DNA of 49,330 nucleotides. Source: a virus. The translations under genes and the position numbers were made by a program. How positions within the stretch are numbered: position 1 is the stretch's first letter; every line of letters starts with the position of its first letter. The notes below the pieces were generated by a model. The model saw nothing but the letters and a program-made list of their open reading frames with translations, was not told the DNA's origin and made no database searches. Shown here in pieces: positions 6,249 through 26,842 of the stretch. The DNA lies in UHGV virus genome UHGV-0139780. One strand, 5' to 3'.

Positions 6249-6329
6249 AAAATAAGCGTGGAGAACACCTCCACGCTTGATTCATTGGTGAAACAACTTT
6301 TCTTTTGCCAAACCACAAAAGAAAAACAC

Positions 6330-7511
6330 ATGAACCTTTATGTTATATCAACATTTAGGTTGGTCACAATATTGCCTGTTAAAAGTGGAATTATCGTGAG
6401 CGAGCTGAAAGAGCTAATTACCGAATTAGATTTTGAACAATGGTTGGACACTGAAGGTATCGTTTATCGACGTGGAGGTGTGAGTACTCGCGGTCGTGAA
6501 GTGAATATCAAGGAGTGTCCGGTATGCGGCAGCTCCAACTGGAAGGTATATTTCAATCTGACCAGCGGCGTCGGTAAATGCTTCGCTGGTGATCATCCCG
6601 AAGAGATTCAGTTCAATAAGCTGGTCTTCCTCAAGCACTACAGCGGTAAATCACGACGACAGTTCGAGGAATATGTGCAGAACGCTCTTCTTTCCCAGGG
6701 GTGGGCACCAAAGAAAGAAGAGATAGTGCTTGCAAGCACAGTCGAGTTAGAGGGACCACTTGCACTCCCTCGTCATTACGAACTTCCTATAGATGGCCGT
6801 CTTCCAGACTATCTGGTTGAACGAAACATATCGCCTGAAATGGCAAAGTATTTTGACCTACGATACTGCGTCGAAGGTAAGCACGCCTATGTAGATCCGT
6901 ATACAGATCAGGTTAAAGGACAGATATTCGATATGCGAATACTGATACCGGTTTACGATCTGGATGGGGTAATGAAGACATTTCAGGGGCGAGACATTAC
7001 CGGTACAGCTGAACGTCGCTACCTCTTTCCTATGCAGCTTCCAGCTTCAGGTAAGTTCCTCTACAACGGCCATAATGCAGTCGGCAAACAAACTGTTGTT
7101 GTCTGTGAGGGGGCGTTCGATGTTATGGGAGTCAAACGAGCTATTTTTGACGAAGAAACATTACGTGATTACGTGGAACCGATAGGAACGTTCGGGATGC
7201 ATCTATCTGGTAACACTACTCAGGATGCAGAAGATCAGTTAGGCGCGTTCCTGACGCTCAAGGCGCGTGGATTACGTAATGTGATCATGATGTGGGATAG
7301 TGAAAAGCAAGCTATACGAAACACTATGGCCGCAGCCAGGCGACTGACCAGTATCGGTCTTAATGTCAAAGTTGCGTGTTTGGGTGAGGAAGGACTCGAC
7401 CCGGGCGGTGCAACGCCAGAACAAATTATCAAAGCCTATTATCGGGCAAAACCGTATACCAAACAGTTGGAGTTGCAAAGCAAGGTTTTGGGCATTAAGG
7501 CTCTCTCATAA
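6330..7511 (+). CDS. DNA primase (zinc-finger plus TOPRIM)
   Basis: CPVCGSS...C zinc finger and VVVCEGAFDVMG TOPRIM motif; start placed at the ATG preceded by AAAAGAAAAACACATG; track start 6258 overlaps a hairpin. Confidence 0.7.
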   Translation: MNLYVISTFRLVTILPVKSGIIVSELKELITELDFEQWLDTEGIVYRRGGVSTRGREVNIKECPVCGSSNWKVYFNLTSGVGKCFAGDHPEEIQFNKLVFLKHYSGKSRRQFEEYVQNALLSQGWAPKKEEIVLASTVELEGPLALPRHYELPIDGRLPDYLVERNISPEMAKYFDLRYCVEGKHAYVDPYTDQVKGQIFDMRILIPVYDLDGVMKTFQGRDITGTAERRYLFPMQLPASGKFLYNGHNAVGKQTVVVCEGAFDVMGVKRAIFDEETLRDYVEPIGTFGMHLSGNTTQDAEDQLGAFLTLKARGLRNVIMMWDSEKQAIRNTMAAARRLTSIGLNVKVACLGEEGLDPGGATPEQIIKAYYRAKPYTKQLELQSKVLGIKALS

Positions 7512-7587
7512 AATCGCACCTTTAAAATAAGTAGATAGTCACTTATCTTTCTGTAAGAATAGTTTCATCTGTTAGCTAGGAGTTGGT

Positions 7588-8370
7588 ATGAAAGACGAAA
7601 TTCAGAAATTAGCTTGCGACATCATTGATAAAACTGGTTTAGAAATCAGCGAGAGTAACCGGCTAGACATTATTGAAAAAGCCGTCAATACAGCAATGGA
7701 TCATATTGCCACTCGTTTAGTCGATATCCCGCTACCAGGACTACCTTATCTGAAAGTTGAGTTACGCGTATGGGGCGAATCTTCTGATGCACGGCGTTCT
7801 GCATTGGTTGTTTTTATTAGCAAAGAAAACATACAAGCTCTAAAAGTGCAGGTTGGGGCATGGTTTGATGGTAGGGTTATCTACACTGATACTCTCATTT
7901 GTCCTTCAGGTGATGAGCATATTGAAGCCACTATTCGAGAATCAATTCGGGCTATGCGCAACTTGTCTTTGCTGAAAGACAAGCCTAACTATGAAAATTA
8001 CTTGCTATCAACAAAATCTGAACCAGCATTGTCGCTGAAAGCCGATTTTGTGACCCCGGCTAACTTGCTAGAAGTTTTGATCAATAAAGGGGCGAAGAAT
8101 GCCGTAAATGTAATCAGAGAGAGTGAATATGCATCTCTTTGCGACATGTGCAAAAGCCAGTTGGATCTGGTGCATATCGTTATTGATGCTGGGAAGGCAT
8201 GTGATGGCGTAATGGCGGAATTTGCTGGGAAGATGGTCAGGATTGCTAACGAATTACCGATGATAGAGCAAGAGGCTAAATCATACGCCACCAATCATGT
8301 CACAGAGCTTCTTGTCCCCTATCGCTTAGAAAGCAATCAGCGCAAGATGATTAGCTGGGGAAGTTGGTAA
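7588..8370 (+). CDS. hypothetical protein
   Basis: 260-aa ORF with good coding continuity; no motif recognised. Confidence 0.4.
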   Translation: MKDEIQKLACDIIDKTGLEISESNRLDIIEKAVNTAMDHIATRLVDIPLPGLPYLKVELRVWGESSDARRSALVVFISKENIQALKVQVGAWFDGRVIYTDTLICPSGDEHIEATIRESIRAMRNLSLLKDKPNYENYLLSTKSEPALSLKADFVTPANLLEVLINKGAKNAVNVIRESEYASLCDMCKSQLDLVHIVIDAGKACDGVMAEFAGKMVRIANELPMIEQEAKSYATNHVTELLVPYRLESNQRKMISWGSW

Positions 8371-8427
8371 TCTCTCCGAGCGTCGTTTCTTTTACGCAAA
8401 CAATGATAGGTAAGTACAAGGTTATTT

Positions 8428-8910
8428 ATGGCGATAGTTGTGAAAGCTGATTTGTCAAAAATCCCCTCTATTTCAGGAAATAATGGTTATTCACTTCGTT
8501 GTGAGGAAGTAAAGATAAACGGTGAGTCGGCATATTGCAGTTACTCCGTTTGCCAGCATACCATTCTTGCCTTCAAAGAAAACCGTCTTCCTCGAACTTC
8601 ATTCCAGTCGTGCGCAACCGCTATCAAAGCAGGCAAATGCAAGGCGTTAAAAATGATGGTTGGAGAGATTCGTAAAGGAGAATCTCTGTATTTCGAAGAT
8701 ATGACCGCGCTCATTAAGGAGGTTGAAGAACGGAATAAACAAGCCAGAACTATAAAACGAAAACGTGACAGTGTAACGATTAATAGCATGGTTAAGAAGA
8801 GCACCACATCACAAACAGCGATCACTGACGTGTATGCGGCGTTGCTTGAAGAAACAACAAAAGAAACACATGAGCAAATCGATCAACATATGGAGGCAAA
8901 ACAACAATGA
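8428..8910 (+). CDS. hypothetical protein (Cys-containing, basic C-terminus)
   Basis: 160-aa ORF; no motif recognised. Confidence 0.4.
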   Translation: MAIVVKADLSKIPSISGNNGYSLRCEEVKINGESAYCSYSVCQHTILAFKENRLPRTSFQSCATAIKAGKCKALKMMVGEIRKGESLYFEDMTALIKEVEERNKQARTIKRKRDSVTINSMVKKSTTSQTAITDVYAALLEETTKETHEQIDQHMEAKQQ

Positions 8911-9376
8911 AAAAGTTGATCGCACTTAAGCATAAGCTGGACGAAATGAAAGCTATGGGAACCAATGCAAAAAAAGAGGCATTGGCCAACATGGATGACT
9001 TCGAGCAAAGCATGGTTTCATTGATGCTCAACCCTTTCATTCGTTTTGGGGTAAAGAAATACAAAGTGACCGGAGTTCCCTGAGTACTGGAAGCCTAAAA
9101 CGCGAGCTAAGTTAGAGCGTTTAGGGTTGGTTGCAAACGTTTCTGAAACGAAGTGTTCGGCCAACTACCAGTTAACTGATAAAGGGAAAGTATTGCTACA
9201 GCAATTAGTAGAATCAGGAGTGTTAAAATGATTCCATACATCTCATTAGCTTTTATGGCGGGCTTCCTTATCGGCTTCGGCATCTGTCGTGACTTAATTA
9301 AGCAGGAACTTAAAACCAAAACACTGTGCATCGGAAAGCGTGTGTATCGAGTAGTTCATGAAACAAAGGTTAGAAA

Positions 9377-9667
9377 ATGAGCAATTTAACTTCTTGGGAA
9401 TGGTGGTTGGTCACCTATTTCTTAGCGGCCGGAGTCGCATTCGCCTTTTACGTAGGTCAGTTAGTCGTAAAACTGCTGCTGATGAAATTTGCCAGTCATA
9501 AACGTATCGATGATGGTCTGTGGCGTCTTGGCACCCTGGTGGAAACTCGCTACGGGCAACTTAAGGAGAACGAAACCATTACTATCCAAGCGAAACGATT
9601 CACTGCCACCATCACAAGAACACCTGATCGTAGAGTGGCCTTGATCAAAAAAGTCACAACCGAATAA
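9377..9667 (+). CDS. hypothetical small membrane protein
   Basis: 96 aa with N-terminal hydrophobic helix (WWLVTYFLAAGVAFAFYVGQLVV). Confidence 0.35.
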   Translation: MSNLTSWEWWLVTYFLAAGVAFAFYVGQLVVKLLLMKFASHKRIDDGLWRLGTLVETRYGQLKENETITIQAKRFTATITRTPDRRVALIKKVTTE

Positions 9668-9872
9668 AAACACGACGATAAGTATTTACTTACCTATCCT
9701 TTGTGTATAAGATGACTTTGTTTTCGTTGAGACGCGACTGTTTGAACTTAAATACAAGTGCAAACGAAGAAGTCTATCTGGCAGTAGCCTAATAAGCCAA
9801 ACACCAGCGAGGTCAGTTTCCAGCCTCGTTACCGAAATGGAACACACTGAGCGAGTGTGATTGCAGAACGCA

Positions 9873-9978
9873 GGAGGGAACATGAGTGTTCCCTCCGATG
9901 AAGTAACAGGATGGGCGGTTGGTATTTCAACTCCATATGACTCCCGGATTCTTAGCCTCTGACCGCCCATCCTGTTAC
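9873..9978. repeat. two adjacent perfect hairpins (10-bp stem/4-nt loop; 17-bp stem/41-nt loop) in an ORF-free region
   Basis: ggagggaaca tgag tgttccctcc at 9873-9896; gtaacaggatgggcggt at 9904-9920 pairs with accgcccatcctgttac at 9962-9978. Confidence 0.6.
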
Positions 9979-10053
9979 GTCATTTTGTTCAATTATGTCG
10001 TTTATACTGGGTTAAAAAGCGGCGACGTAGCCCGGCTGGTATGGTTAGCCAGC

Positions 10054-10176
10054 ACACAACGTTGAGGCCATTACATTTTTATCAATTCTAAGGTTCTGTT
10101 CACAGAGATACCGGCGAGCGTTGATATGTAACATGTTGGGCAAACATTCAATCGGAGTAGTGGCCTCAACGTTGTG
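10054..10176. repeat. 16-bp perfect inverted repeat with about 90-nt loop upstream of the tRNA cluster
   Basis: cacaacgttgaggcca (10054-10069) and tggcctcaacgttgtg (10161-10176). Confidence 0.6.
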
Positions 10177-10440
10177 AAGACAGGATAGTTGTGTAGGTTT
10201 AACCACTGTTGCCATTGGTGCCTGTTTTCACAACAAATGATTCCATACATCACATTGTATAAATTATAAAGTAGGTGCTGTCCTCAGAAACATCATCTAC
10301 TTAAAGATTTAGCCTTCTATTGAGCGAAGTCGAAAGCGTCTGGCACTAACGTAAAGTGCAAGTAGCGGTGCGTTTCCTGGCAGAAACTAACACCGCCGCG
10401 ATTGGCACTGTTGAGTAATAAATACTGTCAGTGCTGAATT

Positions 10441-10515
10441 GATGGTGTAGCTCAGCGGCAGAGCAGTTGGCTGTTAACCAACTGGTCGGTGGTTCGAATC
10501 CACCCACCATCGCCA
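10441..10515 (+). tRNA. tRNA-Asn (anticodon GTT)
   Basis: Cloverleaf by eye: acceptor gatggtg/caccatc, anticodon loop ctGTTaa, T-loop ggttcgaatcc, encoded CCA. Confidence 0.8.
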
Positions 10516-10520
10516 ATTTA

Positions 10521-10608
10521 GGGGAGTTAGTCCGTAGAGGTAGCGGGGTAGACTGTAAATCTACTGTCATTGCGACTCGGATGGTTCGACTCCATCACTC
10601 CCCACCAA
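10521..10608 (+). tRNA. tRNA-Tyr (anticodon GTA), long variable arm
   Basis: Acceptor ggggagt/actcccc, anticodon stem-loop tagac-tGTAaat-ctact, long variable arm, T-loop ggttcgactcc, CCA. Confidence 0.8.
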
Positions 10609-10611
10609 ATT

Positions 10612-10687
10612 GCCGGTTTAGCTCAGTTGGTAGAGCAGTCGCTTTGTAAGCGAATGGCCAGCGGTTCAAGTCCGTTAACCGGCACCA
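10612..10687 (+). tRNA. tRNA-Thr (anticodon TGT)
   Basis: Acceptor gccggtt/aaccggc, D-arm gctcagttggtagagc, anticodon loop ttTGTaa, T-loop ttcaagt, CCA. Confidence 0.65.
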
Positions 10688-10695
10688 CAACAATT

Positions 10696-10782
10696 GGAGA
10701 GTAGGGAGCATGGTGCTCAAACGGTCTTGAAAACCGTCCCATTGCGCAAGCGATGATGGTTCGATTCCATTACTCTCCGCCA
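10696..10782 (+). tRNA. tRNA-Ser (anticodon TGA), long variable arm
   Basis: Acceptor ggagagt/actctcc, anticodon stem-loop acggt-ctTGAaa-accgt, long variable arm, T-loop ggttcgattcc, CCA. Confidence 0.75.
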
Positions 10783-10784
10783 GC

Positions 10785-10862
10785 CACAGCGTTGAGCGGT
10801 TTGGCCTTTTAATCACCCAGATTAAGACTCCGCTAACATAAACCAGACCGCTCAACGCTGTG
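10785..10862. repeat. 16-bp perfect inverted repeat with 46-nt loop just after the last tRNA
   Basis: cacagcgttgagcggt (10785-10800) and accgctcaacgctgtg (10847-10862); arm sequence resembles the 10054/10161 repeat. Confidence 0.6.
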
Positions 10863-10936
10863 ATAGACAATTACTGCAGACGTTCTTACCATAGCTTACT
10901 AACATCCCAGCAACTCTTCTGTCAGCGCAAAATTCA

Positions 10937-10958
10937 AAGGGGCTTCGGCCCCTTTTTT
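10937..10958 (+). terminator. rho-independent terminator
   Basis: aaggggc ttcg gcccctt followed by tttttt. Confidence 0.7.
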
Positions 10959-10998
10959 GTAACTGAAATAGTCAAATCGAACTTTGTAAGGAGAAGTA

Positions 10999-11244
10999 AT
11001 GACGATCACTATCTACGGACGAGATAACTGCTCTTACTGCAAACGTGCGGTCGAGCTGGCAAAGCAACTAAAGGGGCATGGCTGCGGTGATTATGAGTAC
11101 ATCGACATCACCACAGCCGGTATCGACAAGGAAAAACTAAGTGAAATTGTTGGTAAACCGGTAGAGACTATCCCACAGGTACTGATCGACGGCCAGCCGA
11201 TTGGCGGATACACAGAACTGGCTGCATACGTCAGCACCCTCTGA
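10999..11244 (+). CDS. glutaredoxin/NrdH-like redoxin
   Basis: 81 aa with CSYC active-site motif in a thioredoxin-fold context (ITIYGRDNCSYCKRA). Confidence 0.7.
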   Translation: MTITIYGRDNCSYCKRAVELAKQLKGHGCGDYEYIDITTAGIDKEKLSEIVGKPVETIPQVLIDGQPIGGYTELAAYVSTL

Positions 11245-13500: not shown

Positions 13501-15609
13501 ATGTCTAAAAAACGTTCCATCAAAGAGGTTCAGGACTTCCGTGACAGTGTAAAACGAGTAGTCGCTCTCCTTTCAGGTAAAAACATCCCTGTTGCAGAAC
13601 GAGGGGACGACGCTTATGTACGCTATAACGATGATGGAGAGCCAATTCTCGTAAACATCCCATCAATCCCGGATAACGCAACACCGGCATTGATGAATGC
13701 TGTGCGCGGATTTCTCGATCATGAGGTTGCTCACATTTTGTTTACCGATATTCGTGTGTCCAACAAAATGAGAGAAAAAGGACGCGTTCCTTCCTGGTCG
13801 CTATGGAATGCCTTAGAAGACGTGTTCATCGAGCGAAAAATGGGGCAGGTCTTTAACGGAACGAGACGTAATCTGATGGCAACTCAGCGCCTTATAATCG
13901 GAAAAGTCTTTAAACCAAAGGCTTCAGAGGCTATTGCTTATTGTGGCAAAGATCAGCGCGCGCTTTTTCTAAACTTCTTTCTCTGTCCGGTTGTAAGAGC
14001 CTGGGATGGCCAAGCACCGTTCGTAGATTTCATGGATGAATACTGGCCTGTCATTGAGAAACCAATTTCATTATTAAAAGAACATGGTATCGATGTGGCC
14101 GTGCGTAACATGTCTTGCACCGAGGATTGTGTAAAGGTGGCTGCGACCATAGCTAAGATCCTCAAAGACACTGAAAGCGAAAGCAAAGGTAAGGAGTCAG
14201 CTCCGGGAAAAACTTCCGATCCTTCAGACGCTGACCAGACGGATGCCTCTGGAGAAAACAATGAAGATAACGAAGATCATGAGACACCCTCATCGTTAGA
14301 TAATCACAAATCTATCAAATCAGAATCACACAGTAAGCACAAACATGATAATAACGACAGTAATGATTCAGATAATTCTGAATCATCAGAAACAATATTC
14401 GATGATACAGAAAATGATAAAGAGGTATCAGATTCTGATGCTTCTGATAACGCGGCGTCAGAATCATTAACCGCTGACCACGAAAAAAGAAAAACGACAG
14501 AAGACGGCTCTTCAGATATTCCAACTCCGTCAAAAATGAGTCTGGAAGAGGCTTTAGAGGAGCTGGATAGCATAGAAGATGAAGTCGGAGGCATGACAGA
14601 AGATGCTATATCCGAAACGATTAAAAGCGAGTTAACAGAAAGCTCGAAAAGCGAATACAGGCCATACAATCGCTCATACGACTTCATCGGCTCGATTGAT
14701 CAGGCAGAAGCCCATATCAAACGGCTTATTAAAACATTCTCCGATATTGATTTAGGAGGATATCCAATCAGCCGCTATCGCATCGTTCCTGAAGGCAACC
14801 AGCTCTTCGACAAATATATTGAAAAGCATCTTTCGTCAGGTGTTTCGTCGACGCTGGCAAAAGACCTGGAGCGAGCAATAGCAAGCAGAAACAGAGTTCA
14901 GTTTATACCGGGCCAGCGTCGGGGGCGCATTCATGGTTCTAGTATCTACAGATTAGCAATGAATGATGATCGCGTGTTTCGTAAAAAAGAAGAATCTAAA
15001 GCCGTTAACGCCTGTGTTCAACAAGTGATTGATTTATCAGGTTCAATGTGTGGTATAACGATACAATTGGCTCTTGCAAGTGCATATACCATCGCCGATG
15101 CCCTTGATCGAATAAATGTTCCCAACATTATCACCGGCTTCACTACATTTGGTAGTCATATGGCGGCAGGAGAACTTAAGGCTGTCAAGTATGAGTTCTC
15201 TCGCTTTGAGTCTTTAATGCTACCTATCATCAAAAATTGGAATGAAAAGGTAAATTCTCGCGAAGTTCGCTCACGTATGGGGTGCGTAGGCTACACATTC
15301 CCACTTCTTAATAACGTGGATGGTGAAAGTATAGCCAGCCTTGCATCGTTATTTTCCGGTCGCATGGAGGACAGGAAGATCATGCTTGTTCTGAGTGATG
15401 GCGCGCCGTGGGCTGTTGGGAGAGGGTTTGACGCTCATTTGCGTTCGGTTGCGAAGCAAATTGAAACGCAGACTGACATTGATTTGATGGCAATTGGCAT
15501 CATGACTGACGCACCGGAGAGATTTTACTCAAATCATGCCCTGGTAACGAGCGTTGATAGTCTTGGTTCATCTGTAGTTACTGAACTATCTCGTATCATT
15601 TTGAAGTGA
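13501..15609 (+). CDS. von Willebrand factor A domain protein (CobT-like) with central acidic Ser/Asp-rich region
   Basis: MIDAS-like DLSGSM motif in the C-terminal half; long acidic low-complexity segment; followed by an AAA+ gene. Confidence 0.6.
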   Translation: MSKKRSIKEVQDFRDSVKRVVALLSGKNIPVAERGDDAYVRYNDDGEPILVNIPSIPDNATPALMNAVRGFLDHEVAHILFTDIRVSNKMREKGRVPSWSLWNALEDVFIERKMGQVFNGTRRNLMATQRLIIGKVFKPKASEAIAYCGKDQRALFLNFFLCPVVRAWDGQAPFVDFMDEYWPVIEKPISLLKEHGIDVAVRNMSCTEDCVKVAATIAKILKDTESESKGKESAPGKTSDPSDADQTDASGENNEDNEDHETPSSLDNHKSIKSESHSKHKHDNNDSNDSDNSESSETIFDDTENDKEVSDSDASDNAASESLTADHEKRKTTEDGSSDIPTPSKMSLEEALEELDSIEDEVGGMTEDAISETIKSELTESSKSEYRPYNRSYDFIGSIDQAEAHIKRLIKTFSDIDLGGYPISRYRIVPEGNQLFDKYIEKHLSSGVSSTLAKDLERAIASRNRVQFIPGQRRGRIHGSSIYRLAMNDDRVFRKKEESKAVNACVQQVIDLSGSMCGITIQLALASAYTIADALDRINVPNIITGFTTFGSHMAAGELKAVKYEFSRFESLMLPIIKNWNEKVNSREVRSRMGCVGYTFPLLNNVDGESIASLASLFSGRMEDRKIMLVLSDGAPWAVGRGFDAHLRSVAKQIETQTDIDLMAIGIMTDAPERFYSNHALVTSVDSLGSSVVTELSRIILK

Positions 15610-15704: not shown

Positions 15705-17987
15705 ATGACGACTACTGCACTGCAAAATGAAAAAAATCCTTCTGATTACCTTGTTTGCAAGTGGTGCGGCAAATCATTTCACTATTTTAAGTCCCATGTA
15801 GCCAATGGTAATTGTGAGGGCATTCCTGAGTCAGTAAAAGATTCCGACCCTGACACCGTACTGAAAATGTACACAACGCAGTTTCCAGATGAGCCAACGC
15901 TATCGAAAAAGGCACTTGATGCAATTCAAGCTAAACGTGCCGAGCAAAAAAGCGAACTGGCCAAATCTTCTGGCGTGACCAGTAGCCCAGGCTACACAGG
16001 CACAGTTGAGTACAAGACAGATCTGGTCGCAGCTCACGAACTGCTAAACGTAACGGTGGAAGAACTCGGAACAAAACGTGGGACGCCGCTCATGGTTAGC
16101 GTCAACGTCAATACGCCGTTTCCAGAGTTCGTTCCCGAAGTGAAGAAGGGCTACGTATATGGCGACTTCGAACTGATCAAAGATATTTTCATGATGCTTG
16201 AACTTGGCATACCTGGCTATTTGTGGGGTCATGCAGGAACAGGCAAGGCCCAGCCAGTAGATACGCTAATCCCAACACCAAGAGGGATGGTGCGCTTTGG
16301 TGATTTGAAAGTTGGTGATGAGGTATTCGGATCTAACGGAAAGTCCACAAAGATAACAGGCATCTTCCCACAAGGGATTAAGCCAATTTATCGCATCACC
16401 TTTAGAGATGGTTCTAGCACACGAGCTTGCGGCGAACATCTTTGGCATATCCTACCTACACATGAATACAAGACCAAAAACGGCAAGAGCTACAAGCAAC
16501 ATGCAAAAATCAGAACGACCAAAGAAATGATTGACTTGGGAATCAGAAATTCTGGTGGTCAGTGCAAGTTCAAAGTTCCTTTAACTAAAGCTGTCGAGTG
16601 GCCCTCGCAGGAACATCTCATCCATCCCTATTTATTAGGTGCGTTAATTGGAGACGGTTACTTATTAGGGAACACGCCAGCAATGAGCGTGGGTACGGAA
16701 GACATTGATATCAAGAGAAGAATCGATTCTCTTCTTCCTGATGGTATGCGCACCAGCAAGCTCAGAAACACGAGTGAAAACGGGCGGCAATTTAATATCA
16801 TCGACTGCAAAAAGTTCCGTCAAAACAGAATGATGGATGAGATTAAACGGCTGGGTTTGAATGTGCAATCAGGGGAAAAATTTATCCCAGATGAATATCT
16901 CTTCGACTCCACTGAAAATCGCCTCGCTTTACTCCGAGGACTGATGGATACAGACGGAAGCGTGAGACAAAACCGTACAAACTTCTCCACCACGTCTGAA
17001 AAGCTGGCTGCATGTGTGAAGTTTCTTGTTCAGTCTTTAGGCGGAACTGCGATAGTAAAAGATGGAGCCGCAGAACGTCATAAGAGCGGTTACTATGCTG
17101 ATATTAACGTGAAAATGTTCATTAACCCATTTTCCGCTGATCGGAAATCCAAAAACTGGTCTCCATCTACCAAGAATCCGCCAAGCAGATTTATCACCTC
17201 TATCGAGGAAGATGGCGAGGCTGAGTGCATATGTATAAAAGTAAGCGCAGATGATGAACTGTACATCACCGAAGAGTTTATCGTTACGCACAATACAACT
17301 CTGCCTACACAGCTATGTGCTTTGCTCAATCGCCCGTTGATCCGTGCCCAACATACAGCATCAATGGAAGAGGCACATGTTACGGGGCAAATTCTGGCGC
17401 GTGATGGCTCTACGTATTTCGAACCTGGCTTGCTTGCGCTCGCAATGAAGCATGGCTGGGTTTACCTCGCGGATGAATACGACTTTGCGTTTCCACAAAT
17501 TCTTGGCGTGTATCAGCCAGTGCTGGAAGGTGAAGCGTTGGTCATCAAAGAGGCGACTCCAGAATGGCGTCGCATTACTCCGCATGAACGGTTTGCTTTC
17601 ATTGGCACTGGCAACACGAACGGATCTGGTGATGAAACCGGCTTGTACCAGGGTACAAACATCCAGAACGCCGCGAACTTTTCGCGTTTTGGCATCGTTT
17701 CGAATGTGAAATACATGAGCAAAGAGGCAGAGATCAACATGTTGATAAATGCCGGCATTGTGGATGAATACGCTGAAAAGATGGTTAAGTTTGCCGGTAT
17801 CGTTCGCGATGGATACGAAGAACACAATATTAGCCAACCAATTGGGCCTCGTGAGCTTTTGTTGTCGGCCAAGATTGGAATGATGCGAGGCGATTTTGTG
17901 ACAGGTATTGAGCGTTCTTTCATTAACAAACTCCCTTCAGCTTCTGCGCAAGCGGCACGTGAAGTTGTTCAAAAAATATTTGGTTAA
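15705..17987 (+). CDS. AAA+ ATPase (CobS/MoxR-like) interrupted by an intein
   Basis: Walker A GHAGTGK is split from the TTLPTQL continuation by 349 aa carrying two LAGLIDADG-like motifs and a terminal HN. Confidence 0.6.
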   Translation: MTTTALQNEKNPSDYLVCKWCGKSFHYFKSHVANGNCEGIPESVKDSDPDTVLKMYTTQFPDEPTLSKKALDAIQAKRAEQKSELAKSSGVTSSPGYTGTVEYKTDLVAAHELLNVTVEELGTKRGTPLMVSVNVNTPFPEFVPEVKKGYVYGDFELIKDIFMMLELGIPGYLWGHAGTGKAQPVDTLIPTPRGMVRFGDLKVGDEVFGSNGKSTKITGIFPQGIKPIYRITFRDGSSTRACGEHLWHILPTHEYKTKNGKSYKQHAKIRTTKEMIDLGIRNSGGQCKFKVPLTKAVEWPSQEHLIHPYLLGALIGDGYLLGNTPAMSVGTEDIDIKRRIDSLLPDGMRTSKLRNTSENGRQFNIIDCKKFRQNRMMDEIKRLGLNVQSGEKFIPDEYLFDSTENRLALLRGLMDTDGSVRQNRTNFSTTSEKLAACVKFLVQSLGGTAIVKDGAAERHKSGYYADINVKMFINPFSADRKSKNWSPSTKNPPSRFITSIEEDGEAECICIKVSADDELYITEEFIVTHNTTLPTQLCALLNRPLIRAQHTASMEEAHVTGQILARDGSTYFEPGLLALAMKHGWVYLADEYDFAFPQILGVYQPVLEGEALVIKEATPEWRRITPHERFAFIGTGNTNGSGDETGLYQGTNIQNAANFSRFGIVSNVKYMSKEAEINMLINAGIVDEYAEKMVKFAGIVRDGYEEHNISQPIGPRELLLSAKIGMMRGDFVTGIERSFINKLPSASAQAAREVVQKIFG
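16248..17294 (+). mobile_element. intein with LAGLIDADG homing-endonuclease domain inside the AAA+ ATPase P-loop
   Basis: LLGALIGDGYL and LLRGLMDTDGSV blocks; ends ...VTHN with Thr as +1 residue; N-terminal residue Ala (non-canonical); excision restores GHAGTGKTTL. Confidence 0.6.
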
Positions 17988-18167
17988 TCGTGCGTAAAGG
18001 ATGTTTCGGCTCTCTTATCGCTGCTTCTGAAACTGGTAAGGCTTGTCTGGTATGTCCAGACAAGCCCGATTGTCACCAATCAGCAAAAGAAGTTGCGATT
18101 TCGATGCATGGGAAGTTCGTAGGCTTCCCCAATGACAAAATCAAAAAAACCAGAAAGGTAAAAACAC

Positions 18168-21100
18168 ATGAAGGCTCTGATGGTTCGAACTGACTTCTCT
18201 CTTGGGGAGTCGGCTCTAAAAGCAGAAAACGCGGTGAAGATTGCCAGAGAAGCTGGCTACACCGCTGTAATTTCGGCAGATAGCATGAATATTGCGAGTG
18301 TTATTCCACTACAACGTGCCGCTGGTGACGACATGGCGGTTATTTGTGGTGTGAAACTAAACATTGTTGATGATCCCACATACGAGCACCGGGCTAAACT
18401 TGCTAAAGAGTCTATGGGATGTATGGAATCATTAGAGCGTGGGCGGAACTACTCCTTTACCGCTCTAATTAAAAATGAGCAGGGATATCGAGACATCTGC
18501 GAACTAATGACGGCGGCCAACACACGAGAACAGTTCTACTTTGTACCGCGTCTCTCGCTCGAACAGTTGGTTTCTACATATGCCAAAGGCAACATCATCC
18601 TGCTAACTTCCGACATCGGTAGCGTGTTCCAACGCAACGATTTTGCAAAAATCATAAGCACATTGATTACAGCGGGTGGAAAAGACAACTTCTATAGTGT
18701 GATTTATCCGCACCCTACCCCATTCTACGACCAGATTAACGTCCGGGCGATGAAAGTCGCCAGCGCACTGAAAATAGAGCCAGTAGCGTTTTATCCCGCT
18801 TATTACGAATCGATCGACGATGCAGACATTAAAGACATTGCGCACATGGTTACGAACAACATCAAAATCGACCAGCCGCATCGTCTGCGTATCCCCCACC
18901 AGCGAGATAACGCCGTCAATGGTCGCCGCCATCTCCTTGAGGCGCTTAAAGCCTTCTCCGTTCGCATGGATGTGCCGGTAACAGCTGCAATGGCCTCAAC
19001 AACGCAGGATACCATTATCGATGCCTGCACATGGCGCTGGCATGAATTGCCACCAGCACTGCCAAAGATGGCAGACGACGAGCCTGCAACTCTGATGAAA
19101 CTGGCCGTTGCTGGGCTGCGTAAACGTCTTACCACAAAAGAGTTTGGCTACACACCACCGGCTTCTGAGAACAGGGTTTATGTTGAGCGACTTAAGTACG
19201 AAATGGATACGCTGACTCGCCTGGGATTCTGTGGTTACTTCCTGATGGTACGCGATCTGATGAATCACAGCCGTGAAACTGGCATTCCTGTCGGGCCTGG
19301 TCGTGGTTCCTCTGCTGGCTCTCTGGTGGCATGGTGCATAGGCATAACCAACGTCGACCCTATCCGTCACGGTCTTCTGTTTGAACGTTTCATCAACCCT
19401 GAGCGTCTCGACTTGCCAGATGCGGATTTGGACTTCAGCCAGGCACGTCGCCATGAGGTGATCGAGTATCTGAATGAACGCTACGGCGAAGATTACGTTG
19501 CAGGCATTCCGAACTTCACATATCTGGGCGCAGCCTCTGCACTACGTGACACTGCTCGTATTTATGGTGTGGAGTCCGCAGATATGGCGGTATCAAAAGA
19601 ACTGAAGAACGTCGAGGATGATAGCCTTCCACTGGAGGAGCTGCGCGAACAACTGGCAAGTCTCGACAAATACGCGACAAAATACCCTGATGCATTCAAT
19701 GCAGCCTGCAAGTTACAAAGCCTTATGCGTGGCTTTGGTAGACATGCGGCAGGGATGATCGTAGCAGGTGTTCCTCTGACAGAACGTACACCGGTTGAAC
19801 GACGTGGTGACGCGCGTTGTATCGCATTTGACAAGCGTTACTGCGAGGCTATGGGCCTAATTAAGCTGGACGTGCTTGGCCTGGCAACTCTCGATTTGCT
19901 CGATAGTGCAAAACGCTACATTAAAGAGAACACAGGTGAAGATATCAATCTTGATGCCATATCTCTTGAAGATCGCAAGGTGCTGGATGGTTTTGCTGCT
20001 GGGTACACTCAAGGTGTTTTCCAGCTTGAATCAGGCCCAATGCGCAAGCTGCTTAAAGATTTAGGTGGTGGAATTGAGCCAATGAGCTTTAAAACGGTTG
20101 TTGCTACGACTGCGCTCTTCCGGCCGGGACCAATTCAGTCAGGCATGTTGGATGATTATGTTTCTGTCGCCAAAGGCTTTATGACGCCGGAATCATTACA
20201 CCCCGTTCTTGATGAACTTACCGCAGAAACAAATGGCGTGATTCTCTATCAGGAACAGACGATGAACGCGACTCGATTGCTTGCTGGCTTCACAATGGCT
20301 GAAGCTGACGGTGTGCGTTCCGCAATCGGTAAGAAGAACATGGAAAAAATGAAGAGCATGGGCGAGAAGTTCATCGTTCAGGCTCAAGCTGGCTGGATAG
20401 ACGTTGAGCTGGAAGATGGCACTACACAGCGCATTCACCGTGCGGAACATTTTAAATGCGAAGACGGAACCCTGAAAACTGTCGAAGAAGCACTTGAGCA
20501 CGGAGCAAAACTACCTATAAACGCAGTACGCGTTACAGCGTCACATCCAGGGCTATCAGAGATGAAGGCGAAGGAGATCTGGACTGCATTCGAGAAAAAT
20601 GGTGCCTACCAGTTCAACAAATCACACTCTGTTGCTTACTCCTTAATCAGTTATCAATCTATGTGGTTGAAAACTCATTATCCCGCAGAGTTTTTCGCTG
20701 CTGCTCTCACTATTCTTGGCGAAGATAAACACCAGGGGCTGGTTAAAGATGCGCTGACCTATGGTATTCGCGTATTGCCACCAGACGTTAACGTGTCATC
20801 TAACCGAATCGAGATCCGCACGCTTGAAGATGGCAGCCAGGTGCTGTATGCGCCCTTCTCTGCTGTGAAGGGGTGTTCTGAGAATGGCTGCCAAGCCATC
20901 ATGAGAGCGCGAGAAAAAGTTGGCGGCAAATTCGAGTCACTGGCGCAATTCGAAGAAGCTGTCGAGAAACGTTCCTGTAATAGTCGAGTGCGCGAATCAC
21001 TGCAAAAAGTAGGTGCGTTTGCATCCATAGAGCCAGGTAGTCTGCCAGCAACTGATCCAGAGCGTCTCCGCGACCAGGCAGAATTGATGGGAAACCTTGT

Positions 21101-21693: not shown

Positions 21694-21719
21694 AACATGG
21701 CCATAAAGGCCATGTTTTC
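21694..21719 (+). terminator. hairpin after dnaE (terminator-like, short T-run)
   Basis: aacatggcc ataaa ggccatgtt then ttcc; overlaps the first codons of the track ORF 21697. Confidence 0.45.
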
Positions 21720-21789
21720 CCTTATCCCCTCACATCCCCCTATCTTCAAGCTCATTGCTTCATCATCACAATGCTATAATAAATACAAA

Positions 21790-22245
21790 ATGATAAGTGA
21801 TAAGGAAATGCTCATGTTCGCCGATATTTACGAGAAAATAATGTCTGATCTCGAGTTTGACCGAGACAATCTGGAAGAAGTCTGGCGTAGACAACCCCGC
21901 CTTTTAATGGAGTATGGCTCAAAACTCGCTCATGCAGAAAGAAGTGTCGCAGAGGCAAAACTTAACCTTGAAGCTGTTGAAGCCAAGCTATACGACACAG
22001 AGCGTAAGAACTTGAGTATGAACGGCATTAAGTTCAATGAGTCTGTACTGGACGCTAAGGTTAAAACAAACCCACAGTATCTGTCTAAACGGCAGAAGTT
22101 GGATGAAGCACGGCACATCGCAGACATATACAAACATGCTGTCGCCGCCTTTTCGCATCGCCGAGACATGATCGTTCAGGCGTCGAAGATGGCCATCGTT
22201 GAGTTAGATCGATTAGGCTCTGAACGCTTTATTACTCCCCGCTGA
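21790..22245 (+). CDS. hypothetical protein (possibly UvsY-like recombination mediator; weak)
   Basis: Start moved to ATG at 21790, downstream of the hairpin and a TATAAT-like box; about 151 aa, mostly helical and charged. Confidence 0.35.
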   Translation: MISDKEMLMFADIYEKIMSDLEFDRDNLEEVWRRQPRLLMEYGSKLAHAERSVAEAKLNLEAVEAKLYDTERKNLSMNGIKFNESVLDAKVKTNPQYLSKRQKLDEARHIADIYKHAVAAFSHRRDMIVQASKMAIVELDRLGSERFITPR

Positions 22246-22362
22246 TTTTTGATAGATAATAAGTATGTACTGATCTATCATTTGACAGCTCGAAAAAGCC
22301 ACGAATGAACGAAAGCCCAACGCGCATAGCGCCATCGGTCAAATCACAACAAGGAGAAACAC

Positions 22363-23391
22363 ATGTCTAAGACATTACTTGATTTGCTTAACAAAACTCG
22401 TAAAGACATTGCCGCCAAACGTGGTAACAACGTTGATCTGGCTCGCTTAAAAGATGGCATCAACTATATCCGTATCTTCCCGAATAAAGACGATCCAAAT
22501 GGTAAGTTTTTCCAGACTTTCGGTATGCACTACGTTAAGTATCAGAACGAGGACGGTAAAGAAGCCACCAACGCTTATATTTGTGAGCAACAAACTCACG
22601 GTCGCGCTTGTCAGCTATGCGAAATGGTGATGGAAGGTCGCGCTCGTCACAAGGATAACACAGCAATGGAAGATCGCATCAGTAAAATGCGCGCGTCCCC
22701 TCGCTACCTAGTCAACGGTGTTCTGTCTGCGCGTGAAGACTTTGCCGATGCAGAGAAATGCCAGTTAATCGAATTGCCGTCCACGGTCTTCGACGATATC
22801 TGCAAAGCAATCGCCGAAGACATTGCTGACGATATCGGAAATCCACTGAGCAAAGAGGAAGGCTACGCATTCCTGATTAATCGCACTGGCTCTTACCCCA
22901 ATACCGTATATGACCTCACGCGTAAGCGTAAAGTCTTCAACGGCGATATCGAAGATAAATTCTGGAACACCCAGCATGATCTAAGCGCATTCGTAAATCA
23001 GGCTGATGAAACTCGTCTTCTCTCGACAATTCGCACTATGGGCCGTCTGATTGGCATCGCAGCACCAACTGCCTCTGCATCTGCACCAGCAATTTCCTCT
23101 ACCGCGAAAACATCGGCCGCGGCACTGCCTGGATTTGGCTCTGTCACTGGTCATACGGAGGGTGCGACTGCTGTAGCAACCGCTCACACCCCAGCTTCTG
23201 AACCAACCAGTCTGGTTGATGAAGAAATCCTCCGTGCCGTTGAAACTGAATTTAAACCAGAAGCAAGTTCCGCTGCCGTTGCCGTATCAGTCAAAGAGTC
23301 TGAAGCAGTCGCAGCGACATCTGTAGCAGCCGCATCTGCGACGGAAGATGAAGGTCTGGATGATCTACTGAGAGAGCTTGACTCTCTGTAA
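22363..23391 (+). CDS. gp32-like single-stranded DNA-binding protein
   Basis: IRIFPNKDD block, Cys/His cluster (CEQQTHGRACQLC), Ala/Ser-rich linker and acidic C-terminus (DDLLRELDSL), as in T4 gp32. Confidence 0.6.
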   Translation: MSKTLLDLLNKTRKDIAAKRGNNVDLARLKDGINYIRIFPNKDDPNGKFFQTFGMHYVKYQNEDGKEATNAYICEQQTHGRACQLCEMVMEGRARHKDNTAMEDRISKMRASPRYLVNGVLSAREDFADAEKCQLIELPSTVFDDICKAIAEDIADDIGNPLSKEEGYAFLINRTGSYPNTVYDLTRKRKVFNGDIEDKFWNTQHDLSAFVNQADETRLLSTIRTMGRLIGIAAPTASASAPAISSTAKTSAAALPGFGSVTGHTEGATAVATAHTPASEPTSLVDEEILRAVETEFKPEASSAAVAVSVKESEAVAATSVAAASATEDEGLDDLLRELDSL

Positions 23392-23406
23392 TCCCATTAC
23401 GTGACC

Positions 23407-23436
23407 AGTAAGGCGTCTACGGACGCCTTACTTTTT
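23407..23436 (+). terminator. rho-independent terminator after the SSB gene
   Basis: agtaaggcgtc tacg gacgccttact followed by ttttt. Confidence 0.65.
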
Positions 23437-23451
23437 GGAAGGAATGTACCG

Positions 23452-24396
23452 GTGAATTATCTCTTCGTAGATGGCAATAGCCTGGGTTATTACCACCAAA
23501 AATCTGACAAATTGTATAACGGCGAAATGGAAGTACAGGCTGCTTTCGGCTTTGTTAAGAACGTCCGTCGTTATGCCTCAATTCTCCATGCCCGGCCTAT
23601 GATTCTTTGGGATGGATTTAGTGACAAGCGTCGCGACTTTTACCCGGATTACAAGGCAAATCGCGACAACGACCCTGATATAAAAAAGATGAAGGAAGGC
23701 TTTGCTATCCAGAAGCCATACATCCTCAAAATGATGACCGCGCTTGGAGTTAACCAACTCATTGCAAAAGATGCAGAAGCGGACGATCTGGCCGGGCTGC
23801 TGGTATCCCGTATGGCACCGCAGCCAACCGTTGAACACATCTATCTGTTAACAGGCGATGGTGACTGGCTTCAGTTAGTTCGTGAAAACGTAAGCTGGGT
23901 AAGCCTGCGTGAAGACGCCAAAAACAAGCAGGTTAATTTTGAGCAATTTGCGGAGCTGACAGGGTTCGCCACGCCTCGCGCATTTTTGGAAGCAAAAGCA
24001 TTACAAGGCGATAACTCGGACAACATTAGCGGTGTTGGTGGCATTGGTGCTGGCGGTGCGAAAGAGCTGCTGCATGAATGGGGAAGTGTCGCAACGATGG
24101 TACGCGGCATCAACGACGGCTCAATCGTGGTTAATAAAGGGCGTCATAAGACCGCCTTCAACAAACTAGCGAAGAATGCCTTCAACGAGAAAACAGGCTG
24201 TCGAATGCTCGAAGCGTTCAAGAGAAACATCACGCTAATGAACCTGATTGAGACGAAGTTTCCGCCTACCGAAATCGAAACAATCAAAGGCAATCGTGAC
24301 GTGAAAGCATTCGAGCAACTGTGTTACGAGCTGAATTTCCGTTCGTTCCTTGAAGACCTTGAAGTGTTTGTTCTTCCATTCGAAAGGTATTGCTAA
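23452..24396 (+). CDS. 5'-3' exonuclease / flap endonuclease (FEN, RNase H-like)
   Basis: FEN-family blocks by eye: N-terminal FVDGNSL, central LTGDGDWLQLV, and a Gly-rich helix-hairpin-helix-like segment; start set to GTG 23452 after GGAAGGA, downstream of the terminator. Confidence 0.7.
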   Translation: MNYLFVDGNSLGYYHQKSDKLYNGEMEVQAAFGFVKNVRRYASILHARPMILWDGFSDKRRDFYPDYKANRDNDPDIKKMKEGFAIQKPYILKMMTALGVNQLIAKDAEADDLAGLLVSRMAPQPTVEHIYLLTGDGDWLQLVRENVSWVSLREDAKNKQVNFEQFAELTGFATPRAFLEAKALQGDNSDNISGVGGIGAGGAKELLHEWGSVATMVRGINDGSIVVNKGRHKTAFNKLAKNAFNEKTGCRMLEAFKRNITLMNLIETKFPPTEIETIKGNRDVKAFEQLCYELNFRSFLEDLEVFVLPFERYC

Positions 24397-24664: not shown

Positions 24665-26842
24665 ATGGCAAAAGGAAAATCCGCACTGGCACTTGCTCTG
24701 AAAAAGAAAATCGGTAGCAACGACGAAATTCAGAAAGTAACTCATTGGATTGACACAGGCTTTCCTCCGTTAAACAAAGCTATTTCCGGTCGTTACGATG
24801 GCGGTTTCCCATGTGGTCGTATCGTAGAAGTATTCGGGCCGCCAAGCGCGGGGAAAACCTTTTTGGCAACAGCAGCAATGATATCCGCTCAGAAACAAGA
24901 TGGTCTGGCGGTATTCCTCGATCATGAGAACAGTTTTGATGTTGGCCTGGCTGTCGCCAATGGCCTGAACGCAGATGAGGATGACGGTCAGTGGGTATAC
25001 AAGCAGCCTGATACCTTCGAAGACTCTGTAGAGTTGATCGGCACAATACTTAAATTGGTACGTGATGAAGAGCTTATCCCTGAATCAGCACCTATCTGTA
25101 TCGTGGCTGACTCACTTGCGTCTATGGTTCCGAACTCCAAAGCCGAGAAGTTCGAAAAGATGGCTGAAGGCACTGCCAAAGACAAAGATCAGCTAAACAT
25201 GAACGACAATACGGCGCTGGCGCGTGCGACGAGTGCGAACTTTCCTACTCTGGCTTTGTGGGCGCGTAAATACAATGCTTGTTTAATTTTCCTCAATCAG
25301 ATGAGGACAAATCTGGGAATTATGTTTGGCGATAGATGTTTGAGAGGGGATGCAATAATACCTTTCGTTGATGGCACAAGCGCAACTATCCGAGAAATTG
25401 TAGAGAACAAAATAGAAAAAGATGTGTGGTCGTACAACGAAGAGTCAGGCGTTATCGAGCCAAAGAAAATCAACGAATGGCATGATAACGGCCGCAAGCC
25501 AGATGATGAGGAATGGATACACATCAGCACGCTTGGACACAATACCAAAAACGGGGTTATGGCTGCGACATTTACAGAGGATCACCGCATCCTGACTCGT
25601 CGTGGTTGGACTACGGCCAAAGACATAATTGAAGGCGATGAATTGCTTACCAAGCGCACAACTGTTTTAACTAATGAAACCAGGTCTCAAGTTGTCGGCT
25701 TCTTAGTGGGAGACTGCGCTTTTAGAAAGATGAGAGGCGAAAGAACCACAGCAGGCATTGCTTTTCAGGATAATGCGAACCCGTCTTACTCAAAGTGGAA
25801 AGCGGATAAGCTATCGAATCTATTTGGCGAATTTACAGAGACAAAAGTTCTTTTAGGTCGAATGTCAGGAAAGTACGGAATTAGACACGACTCTCCTGTT
25901 AACAACGATTTTAAAGACCTGGAGGATTATGTCAGAAATCCGCTAAAAGTGTTTACGGAGTTTGCCTCCTGGCAAAACTTCGCTCTACTGGTAATGGATG
26001 ACGGTCATCTTGATAGCAGAGGTCGATACGACATTTCATTTAAACGTAAGGCTAAAAAACACTGTGGCAGAGGGTATCTCCAAAACCTGGCCGATATCCT
26101 GTACGACAAATTCAGCATCAGATCAAAAGTTAACGCGCGTAAGGGAGGCCTCCTCTTTGACCAGGAATCCAGCGCCATAATTGCTGAGAATATTGCATCG
26201 TTTGTCTTTGATTCTATGCAGTACAAGCTCCCCTCGGAGTATCGTGGCAAGTTCGTCGATAATTATGATATGCAACCGGTAGTCTCATTCTATGAACATT
26301 GGACGGTCGTCAAAGATGTCCGCGAGAGCAAGGTAAAAAAGGGAGCGGGGAGAACATTAACACGACGTTATGACATTGGTGTTGAAGACAACCATAACTA
26401 TATGGTTGGAAATTCGGCAAATGGATTTATCGTTCACAATTGCACGTCACCAGGTGGCGATTCACCGAAGTTTTACGCTTCTGTGCGCATCCGTCTCGGT
26501 GCATCGGTGATGAAGGATGGTAAAGAGAAGATCGGTCAGGACGTAGGCGCAGAGTGCATCAAAAACAAAGTTGCACCACCGTATGGCAAATGCACCTGGA
26601 AATTCTACTTCGATCCTACTCGTGGCCTCGACGTTATCGAATCGCTCGTCGAGTACATGCTGGAAGAAGGATACCTGCCAAAGAACGCCAGCGGGCGCGT
26701 AGAAATTGGTGACAAGAAATACACCAAATCACAGATCGTCGAGATGTATCGGGAGAAGCCACTAGCTGAAATCATTGCGGCTTTACAGGCAATCGACGAC
26801 CGGAGAGCAAAAGATACCCCCACGGAGTCAGTAGAAGGGTAA
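24665..26842 (+). CDS. RecA/UvsX-like recombinase interrupted by an intein
   Basis: Walker A GPPSAGKT; exteins rejoin as LNQMRTNLGIMFGDR-CTSPGGDSPKFYASVRIRLG, matching the RecA block NQIR..[23 protein letters not shown]. Confidence 0.7.
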   Translation: MAKGKSALALALKKKIGSNDEIQKVTHWIDTGFPPLNKAISGRYDGGFPCGRIVEVFGPPSAGKTFLATAAMISAQKQDGLAVFLDHENSFDVGLAVANGLNADEDDGQWVYKQPDTFEDSVELIGTILKLVRDEELIPESAPICIVADSLASMVPNSKAEKFEKMAEGTAKDKDQLNMNDNTALARATSANFPTLALWARKYNACLIFLNQMRTNLGIMFGDRCLRGDAIIPFVDGTSATIREIVENKIEKDVWSYNEESGVIEPKKINEWHDNGRKPDDEEWIHISTLGHNTKNGVMAATFTEDHRILTRRGWTTAKDIIEGDELLTKRTTVLTNETRSQVVGFLVGDCAFRKMRGERTTAGIAFQDNANPSYSKWKADKLSNLFGEFTETKVLLGRMSGKYGIRHDSPVNNDFKDLEDYVRNPLKVFTEFASWQNFALLVMDDGHLDSRGRYDISFKRKAKKHCGRGYLQNLADILYDKFSIRSKVNARKGGLLFDQESSAIIAENIASFVFDSMQYKLPSEYRGKFVDNYDMQPVVSFYEHWTVVKDVRESKVKKGAGRTLTRRYDIGVEDNHNYMVGNSANGFIVHNCTSPGGDSPKFYASVRIRLGASVMKDGKEKIGQDVGAECIKNKVAPPYGKCTWKFYFDPTRGLDVIESLVEYMLEEGYLPKNASGRVEIGDKKYTKSQIVEMYREKPLAEIIAALQAIDDRRAKDTPTESVEG
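25337..26440 (+). mobile_element. intein with LAGLIDADG homing-endonuclease domain in the recombinase
   Basis: 368 aa beginning CLRGDAII and ending FIVHN with Cys +1; internal VVGFLVGDCAF and FALLVMDDGHL blocks. Confidence 0.7.

Follow-up and report, generated by a model that had tools for sequence, protein, structure and literature searches.

A putative class 3 intein with a LAGLIDADG endonuclease in the P-loop of a CobS-like ATPase from an E. coli-type phage-plasmid

We studied a 49,330-nucleotide stretch of DNA from the virus genome UHGV-0139780 (hereafter the window; coordinates count from its first letter), in which the gene for a CobS-like AAA+ ATPase (15705..17987, + strand) is interrupted within its P-loop by a 1047-bp in-frame insertion (16248..17294, +). 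The host element is a ~110-kb phage-plasmid of the E. coli type. We believe, with a probability of roughly 0.85, that the insert is a class 3 intein with a homing endonuclease, that it splices by the class 3 pathway, and that it was acquired by homing. The evidence comes from hundreds of nearly identical genes that lack the segment, from the signature residues and predicted fold of the insert, and from a patch of foreign codons at the insertion point.

The insertion and its intein-free relatives

The gene is a single uninterrupted open reading frame (ORF) of 760 residues, with no stop or frameshift. The N-extein (residues 1-181, 15705..16247, +) ends in the Walker A sequence GHAGTGK at residues 175-181. 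The insert (residues 182-530, 349 residues, 39.2 kDa, AQPVD...FIVTHN) begins AQPVDTLIP and sits in frame between the Walker A lysine and the Ser/Thr that follows it. The C-extein (residues 531-760 plus the stop codon, 17295..17987, +) resumes with TTLPTQLC, with Thr at both +1 and +2, and contains the AAA_5 core and a Walker B stretch, WVYLADEYD. The 30-mers across the two intein-extein junctions are GGAACAGGCAAGGCCCAGCCAGTAGATACG and ATCGTTACGCACAATACAACTCTGCCTACA. Once residues 182-530 are taken out, the remaining 411-residue protein has an intact GHAGTGKTTL.

Using megablast, we found about 420 close relatives of the gene at 97-99% nucleotide identity: 4 phages, 194 plasmids in PLSDB, and plasmids of 219 of 5,426 complete E. 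coli genomes. The phages, all without the insert, are the Escherichia phages Cyrano, CMS-2020a (two records) and PhiR41_1. Each relative matches 54% of the query in two pieces that together span exactly 1236 bp, the length of the exteins, and no megablast record covered 80% or more of the gene for the 760-residue ORF. In a junction alignment, the flanks of the insert are directly adjacent in Cyrano and PhiR41_1. The intein-free site sequence is GGAACAGGCAAATCGTCATTGCCTACACAA, and in plasmid pEC881_2 and phage Cyrano the site reads GGAACAGGCAAA/TCGTCATTGCCTACACAA (here and below, a slash within a sequence marks the insertion point or splice junction). An 80-nucleotide probe for the spliced junction was contiguous in 752 of the 752 PLSDB records that it matched (Klebsiella, Escherichia, Enterobacter, Yersinia, Salmonella and others), and none of them had an insertion at the P-loop site. 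Because relatives at 97-99% nucleotide identity carry a contiguous 1236-bp gene, the 1047-bp segment is a precise in-frame insertion after the Walker A lysine.

An initial annotation, made from the letters alone, had proposed that a LAGLIDADG intein interrupts the P-loop of a CobS-like AAA+ ATPase and had predicted that removal of residues 182-530 would leave a textbook P-loop. Both proposals were borne out, with every feature at the position given for it and with the intein-free alleles bounding the insert to the residue. That annotation had also called for a comparison with intein-free homologues, in which the segment might have turned out to be a native domain of the ATPase; such alleles exist, and in them the segment is missing. 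We therefore consider the chance negligible that the segment belongs to the ATPase as an accessory domain that is never spliced out, or that misannotation has joined an independent endonuclease gene to the ATPase. The continuous ORF is the only observation in favor of such a reading, while orthologues at 98-99% nucleotide identity lack precisely this segment, the Walker A motif is split at GK/[ST], Hint blocks A, B, F and G are recognizable in the segment, which ends in HN followed by Thr, and homologous elements occur in unrelated ATPases (PhoH, RecD-like, UvrD-like, SNF2, RecA and terminase proteins).

Signature residues, fold and proposed splicing chemistry

Class 3 inteins are defined by the absence of Cys, Ser or Thr at position 1 and by the WCT triplet, which is Trp at B:12, Cys at F:4 and Thr at G:5; at +1 they nearly always have Ser or Thr and rarely Cys, and they reside in helicase-like ATPases, mostly in the P-loop (PMC2807308). 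In this class the Block F cysteine is indispensable, and the first branched intermediate that it forms is labile to thiols. We number block positions as in PMC2807308 and PMC5050341, the latter by Kelley et al., who give identical positions. The definition of the class and its pathway are documented in PMC2807308, PMC5222942, PMC7664689 and PMC6195587.

Block A of the window intein (AQPVDTLIPTPRG, 16248..16286, +) starts with Ala1, so there is no N-terminal nucleophile. Ala1 is found in 85 of 105 aligned homologous inteins, and Gln2 and Pro3 in 90 and 89 of them. Block B (DGSSTRACGEHLW, 16407..16445, +) contains C61-G-E-H64-L-W66, with Cys61 at B:7, His64 at B:10 and Trp66, the W of the triplet, at B:12. 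Block F (ECICIKVSADDELYIT, 17223..17270, +) contains E-C-I-C329-I-K-V, in which Cys329 at F:4 is the C of the triplet and the proposed initiating nucleophile. Block G (EFIVTHN, 17274..17294, +) reads I-V-T347-H-N349 at its end, with Thr347 at G:5 as the T of the triplet, the penultimate His348 and the terminal Asn349. His64, Cys329 (105/105), Thr347 and Asn349 are invariant across the alignment, Trp66 is present in 104 of the 105, and the +1 residue is Thr in 86 and Ser in 19. With Ala1, a complete triplet and Thr531 at +1, every class 3 feature that can be tested on a sequence is found in the window intein.

The initial annotation had identified Ala as the first intein residue and Thr as the +1 residue, which we confirm (the +1 residue is Thr531, with the boundary set by the intein-free alleles), and had concluded that splicing would require an unusual chemistry. 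The two residues are indeed non-canonical, but the chemistry is a known one, that of class 3 (PMC2807308), in which Cys329 would replace the N-terminal nucleophile. The WCT triplet, on which our class assignment is based, did not figure in that annotation. Ala1 and Thr+1 fit the established class 3 mechanism, and therefore no new chemistry is needed: in mechanism and architecture the window intein is typical of class 3 P-loop inteins, of which it is a rare new example without a new mechanism.

Comparison with known sequences points the same way. The top hits of a sequence search of the PDB were gp41-1_WCT (6riz), wild-type gp41-1, Mycobacterium chimaera DnaB1 (6rix, 6riy) and M. smegmatis DnaBi1 (6bs8). 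In these alignments EHLW is paired with EHLW or AHQW and ECICIKV with ELICIEV, and Cys329 stands opposite the F:4 Cys of 6riz, be it engineered or native. Identity to 6rix and 6bs8 is low, and the match covers only the N-terminal ~65 residues (E ~2e-7). The MP-Be intein of mycobacteriophage Bethlehem DnaB has its catalytic residues at nearly the same coordinates (His65, Trp67, Cys320, Thr339 and Asn341 in 341 residues, against 349 in the window intein) and likewise carries a LAGLIDADG endonuclease (PMC5050341). MP-Be, MsmDnaBi1 and MchDnaB1 (the M. chimaera structures 6RIX and 6RIY; PMC7664689) all lack a nucleophile at position 1, have the triplet, and are followed by Thr or Ser, and MsmDnaBi1 (PDB 6BS8; PMC6195587), like the window intein, is inserted in the P-loop of an ATPase. 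The mycobacterial class 3 inteins differ from ours in their hosts, which are helicases or terminases rather than a CobS-like AAA+ ATPase, in their setting, which is an actinobacterial phage or genome rather than an enterobacterial phage-plasmid, and at B:7, where they have Ser or Asp and the window intein has Cys.

An Ala at position 1 is also found in KlbA-type class 2 inteins (PMC2807308), so we considered a class 2-like route, in which the N-terminal junction is attacked by the +1 residue itself and no Block F cysteine intermediate is formed. We think this very unlikely. In class 2 KlbA inteins the triplet is missing, F:4 is Asp and the direct attack comes from Cys+1 (PMC2807308), whereas the window intein has the full triplet and Thr+1; Thr+1 would be a poor direct nucleophile, and the closest solved sequences are those of class 3 inteins.

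The architecture of the insert is that of a full-length intein. Pfam models detect LAGLIDADG_3 (9e-9), Hom_end (1.8e-5) and a weak Hint_2 near the start of the insert. The two LAGLIDADG-like blocks of the initial annotation are YLLGALIGDGY (intein residues 128-138, 16629..16661, +) and LLRGLMDTDGS (residues 228-238, 16929..16961, +), with the putative catalytic residues Asp136 and Asp236 intact. We modeled the insert, together with 7 N-extein and 3 C-extein residues, in AlphaFold2 from 89 aligned sequences, and obtained a mean predicted local distance difference test (pLDDT) score of 94 and a predicted template modeling (pTM) score of 0.92. The best whole-chain Foldseek match in the PDB is PI-SceI, the VMA1 intein (E=1e-17, template modeling (TM) score 0.73, query-normalized), and the TliVMA and PhoVMA inteins are also found. 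All of these likewise combine a Hint domain with a LAGLIDADG endonuclease, but they are class 1 inteins (Cys1, Cys+1) of V-ATPase subunits with 13-17% identity to ours. The central domain of the model matches I-DmoI (TM-score ~0.62, target-normalized) and the endonuclease domain of PI-SceI, and the splicing domain matches mini-inteins including class 3 MsmDnaBi1 (6bs8, TM-score 0.80, target-normalized), 6riz and the Ssp DnaB mini-intein. In the model, blocks A, B, F and G thus belong to a predicted Hint fold that ends in His-Asn and is followed by a nucleophile at +1, and nested in this fold is a predicted alpha-beta-beta-alpha-beta-beta-alpha pseudo-dimer with two acidic-ended motifs, as in double-motif LAGLIDADG endonucleases. 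Because homologues, fold and endonuclease motifs agree, the insert consists, as far as sequence and model can tell, of a LAGLIDADG homing endonuclease nested within a Hint splicing domain.

Based on the class 3 route established for the mycobacteriophage Bethlehem DnaB intein and the Msm and Mch DnaB1 inteins (PMC2807308, PMC5222942, PMC7664689), we propose the following pathway. The 84.4-kDa precursor would be unable to bind ATP, because the intein splits the Walker A motif at GK/T; a parallel argument on precursor ATP binding has been made for P-loop inteins in RadA and DnaB (PMC6195587). The thiol of Cys329 at F:4, with His64 as its activator and Trp66 and Thr347 as packing partners, would attack the Lys181-Ala182 peptide bond, leaving the N-extein as a thioester branch on Cys329, from which it would be transferred to the hydroxyl of Thr531 at +1. 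Asn349 would then cyclize with the assistance of His348 and release the 39-kDa intein, and an O-to-N acyl shift would yield the 45.3-kDa ATPase with an intact GHAGTGKTTL P-loop. The endonuclease presumably cuts intein-free alleles at the site coding for the P-loop, and repair from an intein-bearing copy would spread the element, with an 8-nucleotide patch of donor type as its footprint.

Several cysteines lie around the predicted catalytic center: Cys61 at B:7 (16428-16430), and Cys327 and Cys329, which form a CxC at F:2 and F:4 (17226-17234). In the family alignment, Cys occurs at position 60 in 86 of 105 sequences, at position 61 in 54 and at position 327 in 43. Class 3 MsmDnaBi1 has a redox trap in the form of a reversible Cys48-Cys118 disulfide (PMC6195587), and by analogy Cys61 or Cys327 of the window intein might pair reversibly with the initiating Cys329 in a disulfide. 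It is conceivable, though we doubt it, that the intein is a conditional, redox-sensitive switch and not a purely selfish passenger. If so, the P-loop would be held open under oxidative stress, gating the function of the replication module of the phage-plasmid. The intein-free twins at 98-99% identity in E. coli make both the redox switch and homing testable in the native host.

Family, Xenorhabdus orthologues and origin of the intein

A protein search with the insert returned 217 matches, all within longer P-loop nucleoside triphosphatases. The hosts, in phages and bacteria, include PhoH, AAA_24, AAA_30/RecD-like, UvrD-like, SNF2, RecA, IstB and terminase proteins. Almost everywhere the ends of these inteins, with alignments extrapolated to the termini, read G-K/A-Q-P...(I or V)-V-T-H-N/(T or S). 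Of 225 family inteins, 141 start with Ala, 45 with Glu and 15 with Ser or Cys; at +1, 194 have Thr and 31 have Ser, while Cys does not occur; and 170 are inserted directly after the GK of Walker A. Members of this wider P-loop family share the architecture and signature residues of the window intein, but sit in other host proteins and are at most 54% identical to it. A phmmer search of 1.84 billion cluster representatives gave 18,847 matches at E<=1e-3, with a Xenorhabdus cluster at the top at 68%; the next best were at ~51% in that search and at 54% (P0128) in a word-indexed search, and the window protein itself was absent from both protein collections. Relatives of the intein at 45% identity or less are encoded in 678 deposited phage genomes, Klebsiella phages among them, and family relatives occur in 25 Escherichia and 49 Stx2a-converting phage records.

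When the full-length protein was used as the query, proteins of Xenorhabdus sp. KJ12.1, X. hominickii and X. bovienii (P0121-P0123; 767-778 residues, 98-99% query coverage) were found, annotated as 'porphyrin biosynthesis protein/AAA family ATPase'. Their inteins occupy the identical site, GHAGTGK/AQP...VTHN/T[TS]L, and intein-free Xenorhabdus alleles, which read GTGK/SSL, also exist. Identity to the window for KJ12.1, X. hominickii and X. bovienii is 68, 65 and 61% in the intein and 68, 65 and 66% in the C-extein; in the N-extein it is ~40%. The KJ12.1 locus, on a 110-kb contig, is syntenic with the window (integrase, repressor, CobT, CobS with the intein, DnaE). The Xenorhabdus inteins therefore share an orthologous host, the same site, a syntenic locus and contigs of ~100-110 kb with the window intein, while 32-39% of their residues differ. 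We found no publication on these CobS-like inteins, which are known to us as database entries. In the X. bovienii intein (P0123), motif 1 has IVDD where the others have IGDG, and its splicing blocks are intact, which suggests that its homing endonuclease is decaying.

How the window gene came to have the intein can be read, in part, from the codons around it. When the window extein is compared with pEC881_2, Cyrano and PhiR41_1, 21-38 scattered differences are seen, and six differences, at extein nucleotides 543, 544, 546, 547, 549 and 550, are common to all three comparisons. These lie at the insertion point, where AAA/TCG TCA TTG has become AAG/ACA ACT CTG. On the 3' side, TCG TCA T has given way to ACA ACT C (17295..17301, +), changing Ser-Ser to Thr-Thr; on the 5' side, none of the intein-free relatives compared shares base 16247, the last of the N-extein (AAA to AAG). 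Four of the six substitutions are synonymous, and the probability of at least six differences in a given 8-nucleotide window at a background of 1.2% is ~9e-11. Such a patch is expected as the footprint of homing with co-conversion from a donor allele, and a donor would be expected to share the window flanks, AAG/.../ACAACTCTG. The Xenorhabdus inteins are not the direct donor, since their flanking codons differ.

The opposite history, in which the intein is ancestral in the CobS-like gene of these phage-plasmids and has been lost from all other sampled Escherichia-type elements, seems to us improbable. The divergence of the intein from its Xenorhabdus counterparts (61-68% identity) is about that of the C-extein (65-68%), as vertical co-descent would give. 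However, 752 PLSDB records, 5,426 E. coli genomes and 50,697 phage records all lack the intein, intein-free relatives differ from the backbone by only 1-3%, and the junction has a dense foreign patch of synonymous changes. An intein-free allele with the 'TT' flanks of the window, which would indicate a precise loss, was found in 0 of 752 PLSDB records, the best match being 93.6% identical.

Against acquisition by homing and class 3 splicing, the following points have to be weighed. The donor allele was not found in phage records, GTDB species genomes or viral contigs. Intein DNA searched against the 50,697 phage records (blastn in distant mode) gave no match, a single intein protein searched against GTDB species genomes gave no confirmed relative, an alignment of four CobS inteins against the same genomes recovered only X. 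hominickii (63%) and actinobacterial relatives at 39% or less, and a scan of viral contigs recovered relatives at 37% or less only. We infer homing from the footprint alone, because no donor was found and the nearest intein is 68% identical. Beyer et al. found that WCT grafted onto a class 1 intein is insufficient for splicing (PMC7664689), and because of this failure on a class 1 scaffold the triplet alone is no proof of activity; unlike the grafted scaffold, the window intein is a natural member of the class 3 family over its whole length. Splicing and DNA cleavage by the window intein are putative activities that we infer by homology.

These points bear on another possibility, that the intein is splicing-dead or decaying and has inactivated a dispensable CobS-like gene in which stops have not yet accumulated. 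The intein occurs once among ~750 related plasmids, so it could be a recent, unselected accident, the IVDD of P0123 shows that decay occurs in the lineage, and the insufficiency of WCT for splicing (PMC7664689) applies here as well. On the other side, all family-invariant residues are kept in both the splicing and the endonuclease domain, the 760 codons are free of stops and frameshifts, the model has a pLDDT of 94, and conservation of the CobS-like gene across every relative searched is a sign that the gene matters. We consider a dead intein unlikely, and favor an active class 3 intein acquired by homing.

Host gene, neighboring genes and other inteins

The host protein is, on sequence grounds, a CobS-like ATPase of the AAA_5/MoxR type, and its identity as a cobaltochelatase subunit is not established. 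Pfam matches AAA_5 on the C-extein. Over its full length, the ligated extein aligns with phrog_249 ('porphyrin biosynthesis', 2.6e-106), so 'CobS-like', as the initial annotation had it, is right as a statement of likeness; against TIGR01650, the CobS equivalog model, it scores 87 bits with a cut-off of 558, and the name does not hold for CobS proper. Immediately upstream is a gene for a CobT-like partner with a von Willebrand A (vWA) domain (13501..15609, +; Pfam CobT 8e-27, CobT_C 2e-82). It is syntenic in all relatives examined. The ATPase is paired with a CobT-like vWA subunit, as expected of CobS. The order integrase, repressor, CobT-like gene, CobS-like gene, DnaE is common to the related plasmids and phage records, and the carriers of the relatives are non-mobilizable plasmids of ~100-115 kb. 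These plasmids presumably resemble the SSU5/pHCM2-type phage-plasmids.

The window contains a second intein. A RecA-like ORF (24665-26842, +, 725 residues) is interrupted at ~25337-26440 by a 368-residue class 1 LAGLIDADG intein, MFGDR/CLRGDAIIPF...NGFIVHN/CTSPGG (Pfam RecA, Intein_splicing and LAGLIDADG_2). Plasmid pEC881_2 lacks this intein, and 0 of 551 PLSDB RecA matches cover 80% or more of the gene. Here too there is a dense co-conversion tract, ~120 nucleotides upstream of the junction, and the junction residues P-T have become R/C. Some related plasmids, such as the E. coli plasmid ESBL242 (NZ_KP792123.1, 66374-68713), have another class 1 intein in RecA, which lies within the P-loop (GPPSAGK/CVTADT...IISHN/TFLAT), and their RecA genes are annotated only as 'LAGLIDADG family homing endonuclease'. 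Because the RecA inteins of the window and of ESBL242 occupy different sites, this plasmid family hosts at least three distinct intein insertions, which are mis-annotated. We had considered whether an intein in an E. coli element might be unprecedented, and rejected this: ESBL242-type plasmids have the RecA P-loop intein, and Escherichia and Stx2a phages encode relatives of the intein described here.

In literature searches that combined inteins with CobS, phage-plasmids, Xenorhabdus or SSU5, we found no account of the window intein and no paper on an intein in a CobS-like protein. What is new is the CobS-like host protein family, with only three database orthologues that carry the intein, the phage-plasmid lineage, in which some 750 sampled relatives are without it, and the preserved co-conversion scar. 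CobS-like AAA+ ATPases of phage-plasmids can thus be added to the list of intein host proteins, and current annotation ('AAA family ATPase', 'porphyrin biosynthesis protein', 'LAGLIDADG family homing endonuclease') omits the intein. An apparently intact class 3 intein in a heavily sampled lineage with hundreds of near-identical intein-free alleles is also a natural experiment. It would provide a tractable E. coli system for class 3 splicing in vivo, for homing into DNA coding for a P-loop, and for the question of whether an intein that leaves an ATPase inactive before splicing has a cost in fitness or a use in regulation.

Between the CobS-like gene and dnaE, and overlapping the start of dnaE, there is a 67-residue ORF (17990-18193, +). 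A 62-residue ORF is found at the equivalent position of the Xenorhabdus locus (8319-8507), and because of this the ORF in the window may be a real, conserved small gene. We also noted that the window is mosaic relative to its closest plasmid, pEC881_2, around ~9064-11000 and 28053. By blastn, three stretches of pEC881_2 are not represented in the window, namely 1555-2924, which comprises most of the DNA ligase gene, 5311-6805 and 21696-23777, and over 7519-9068 of the window the identity to pEC881_2 falls to 93%.

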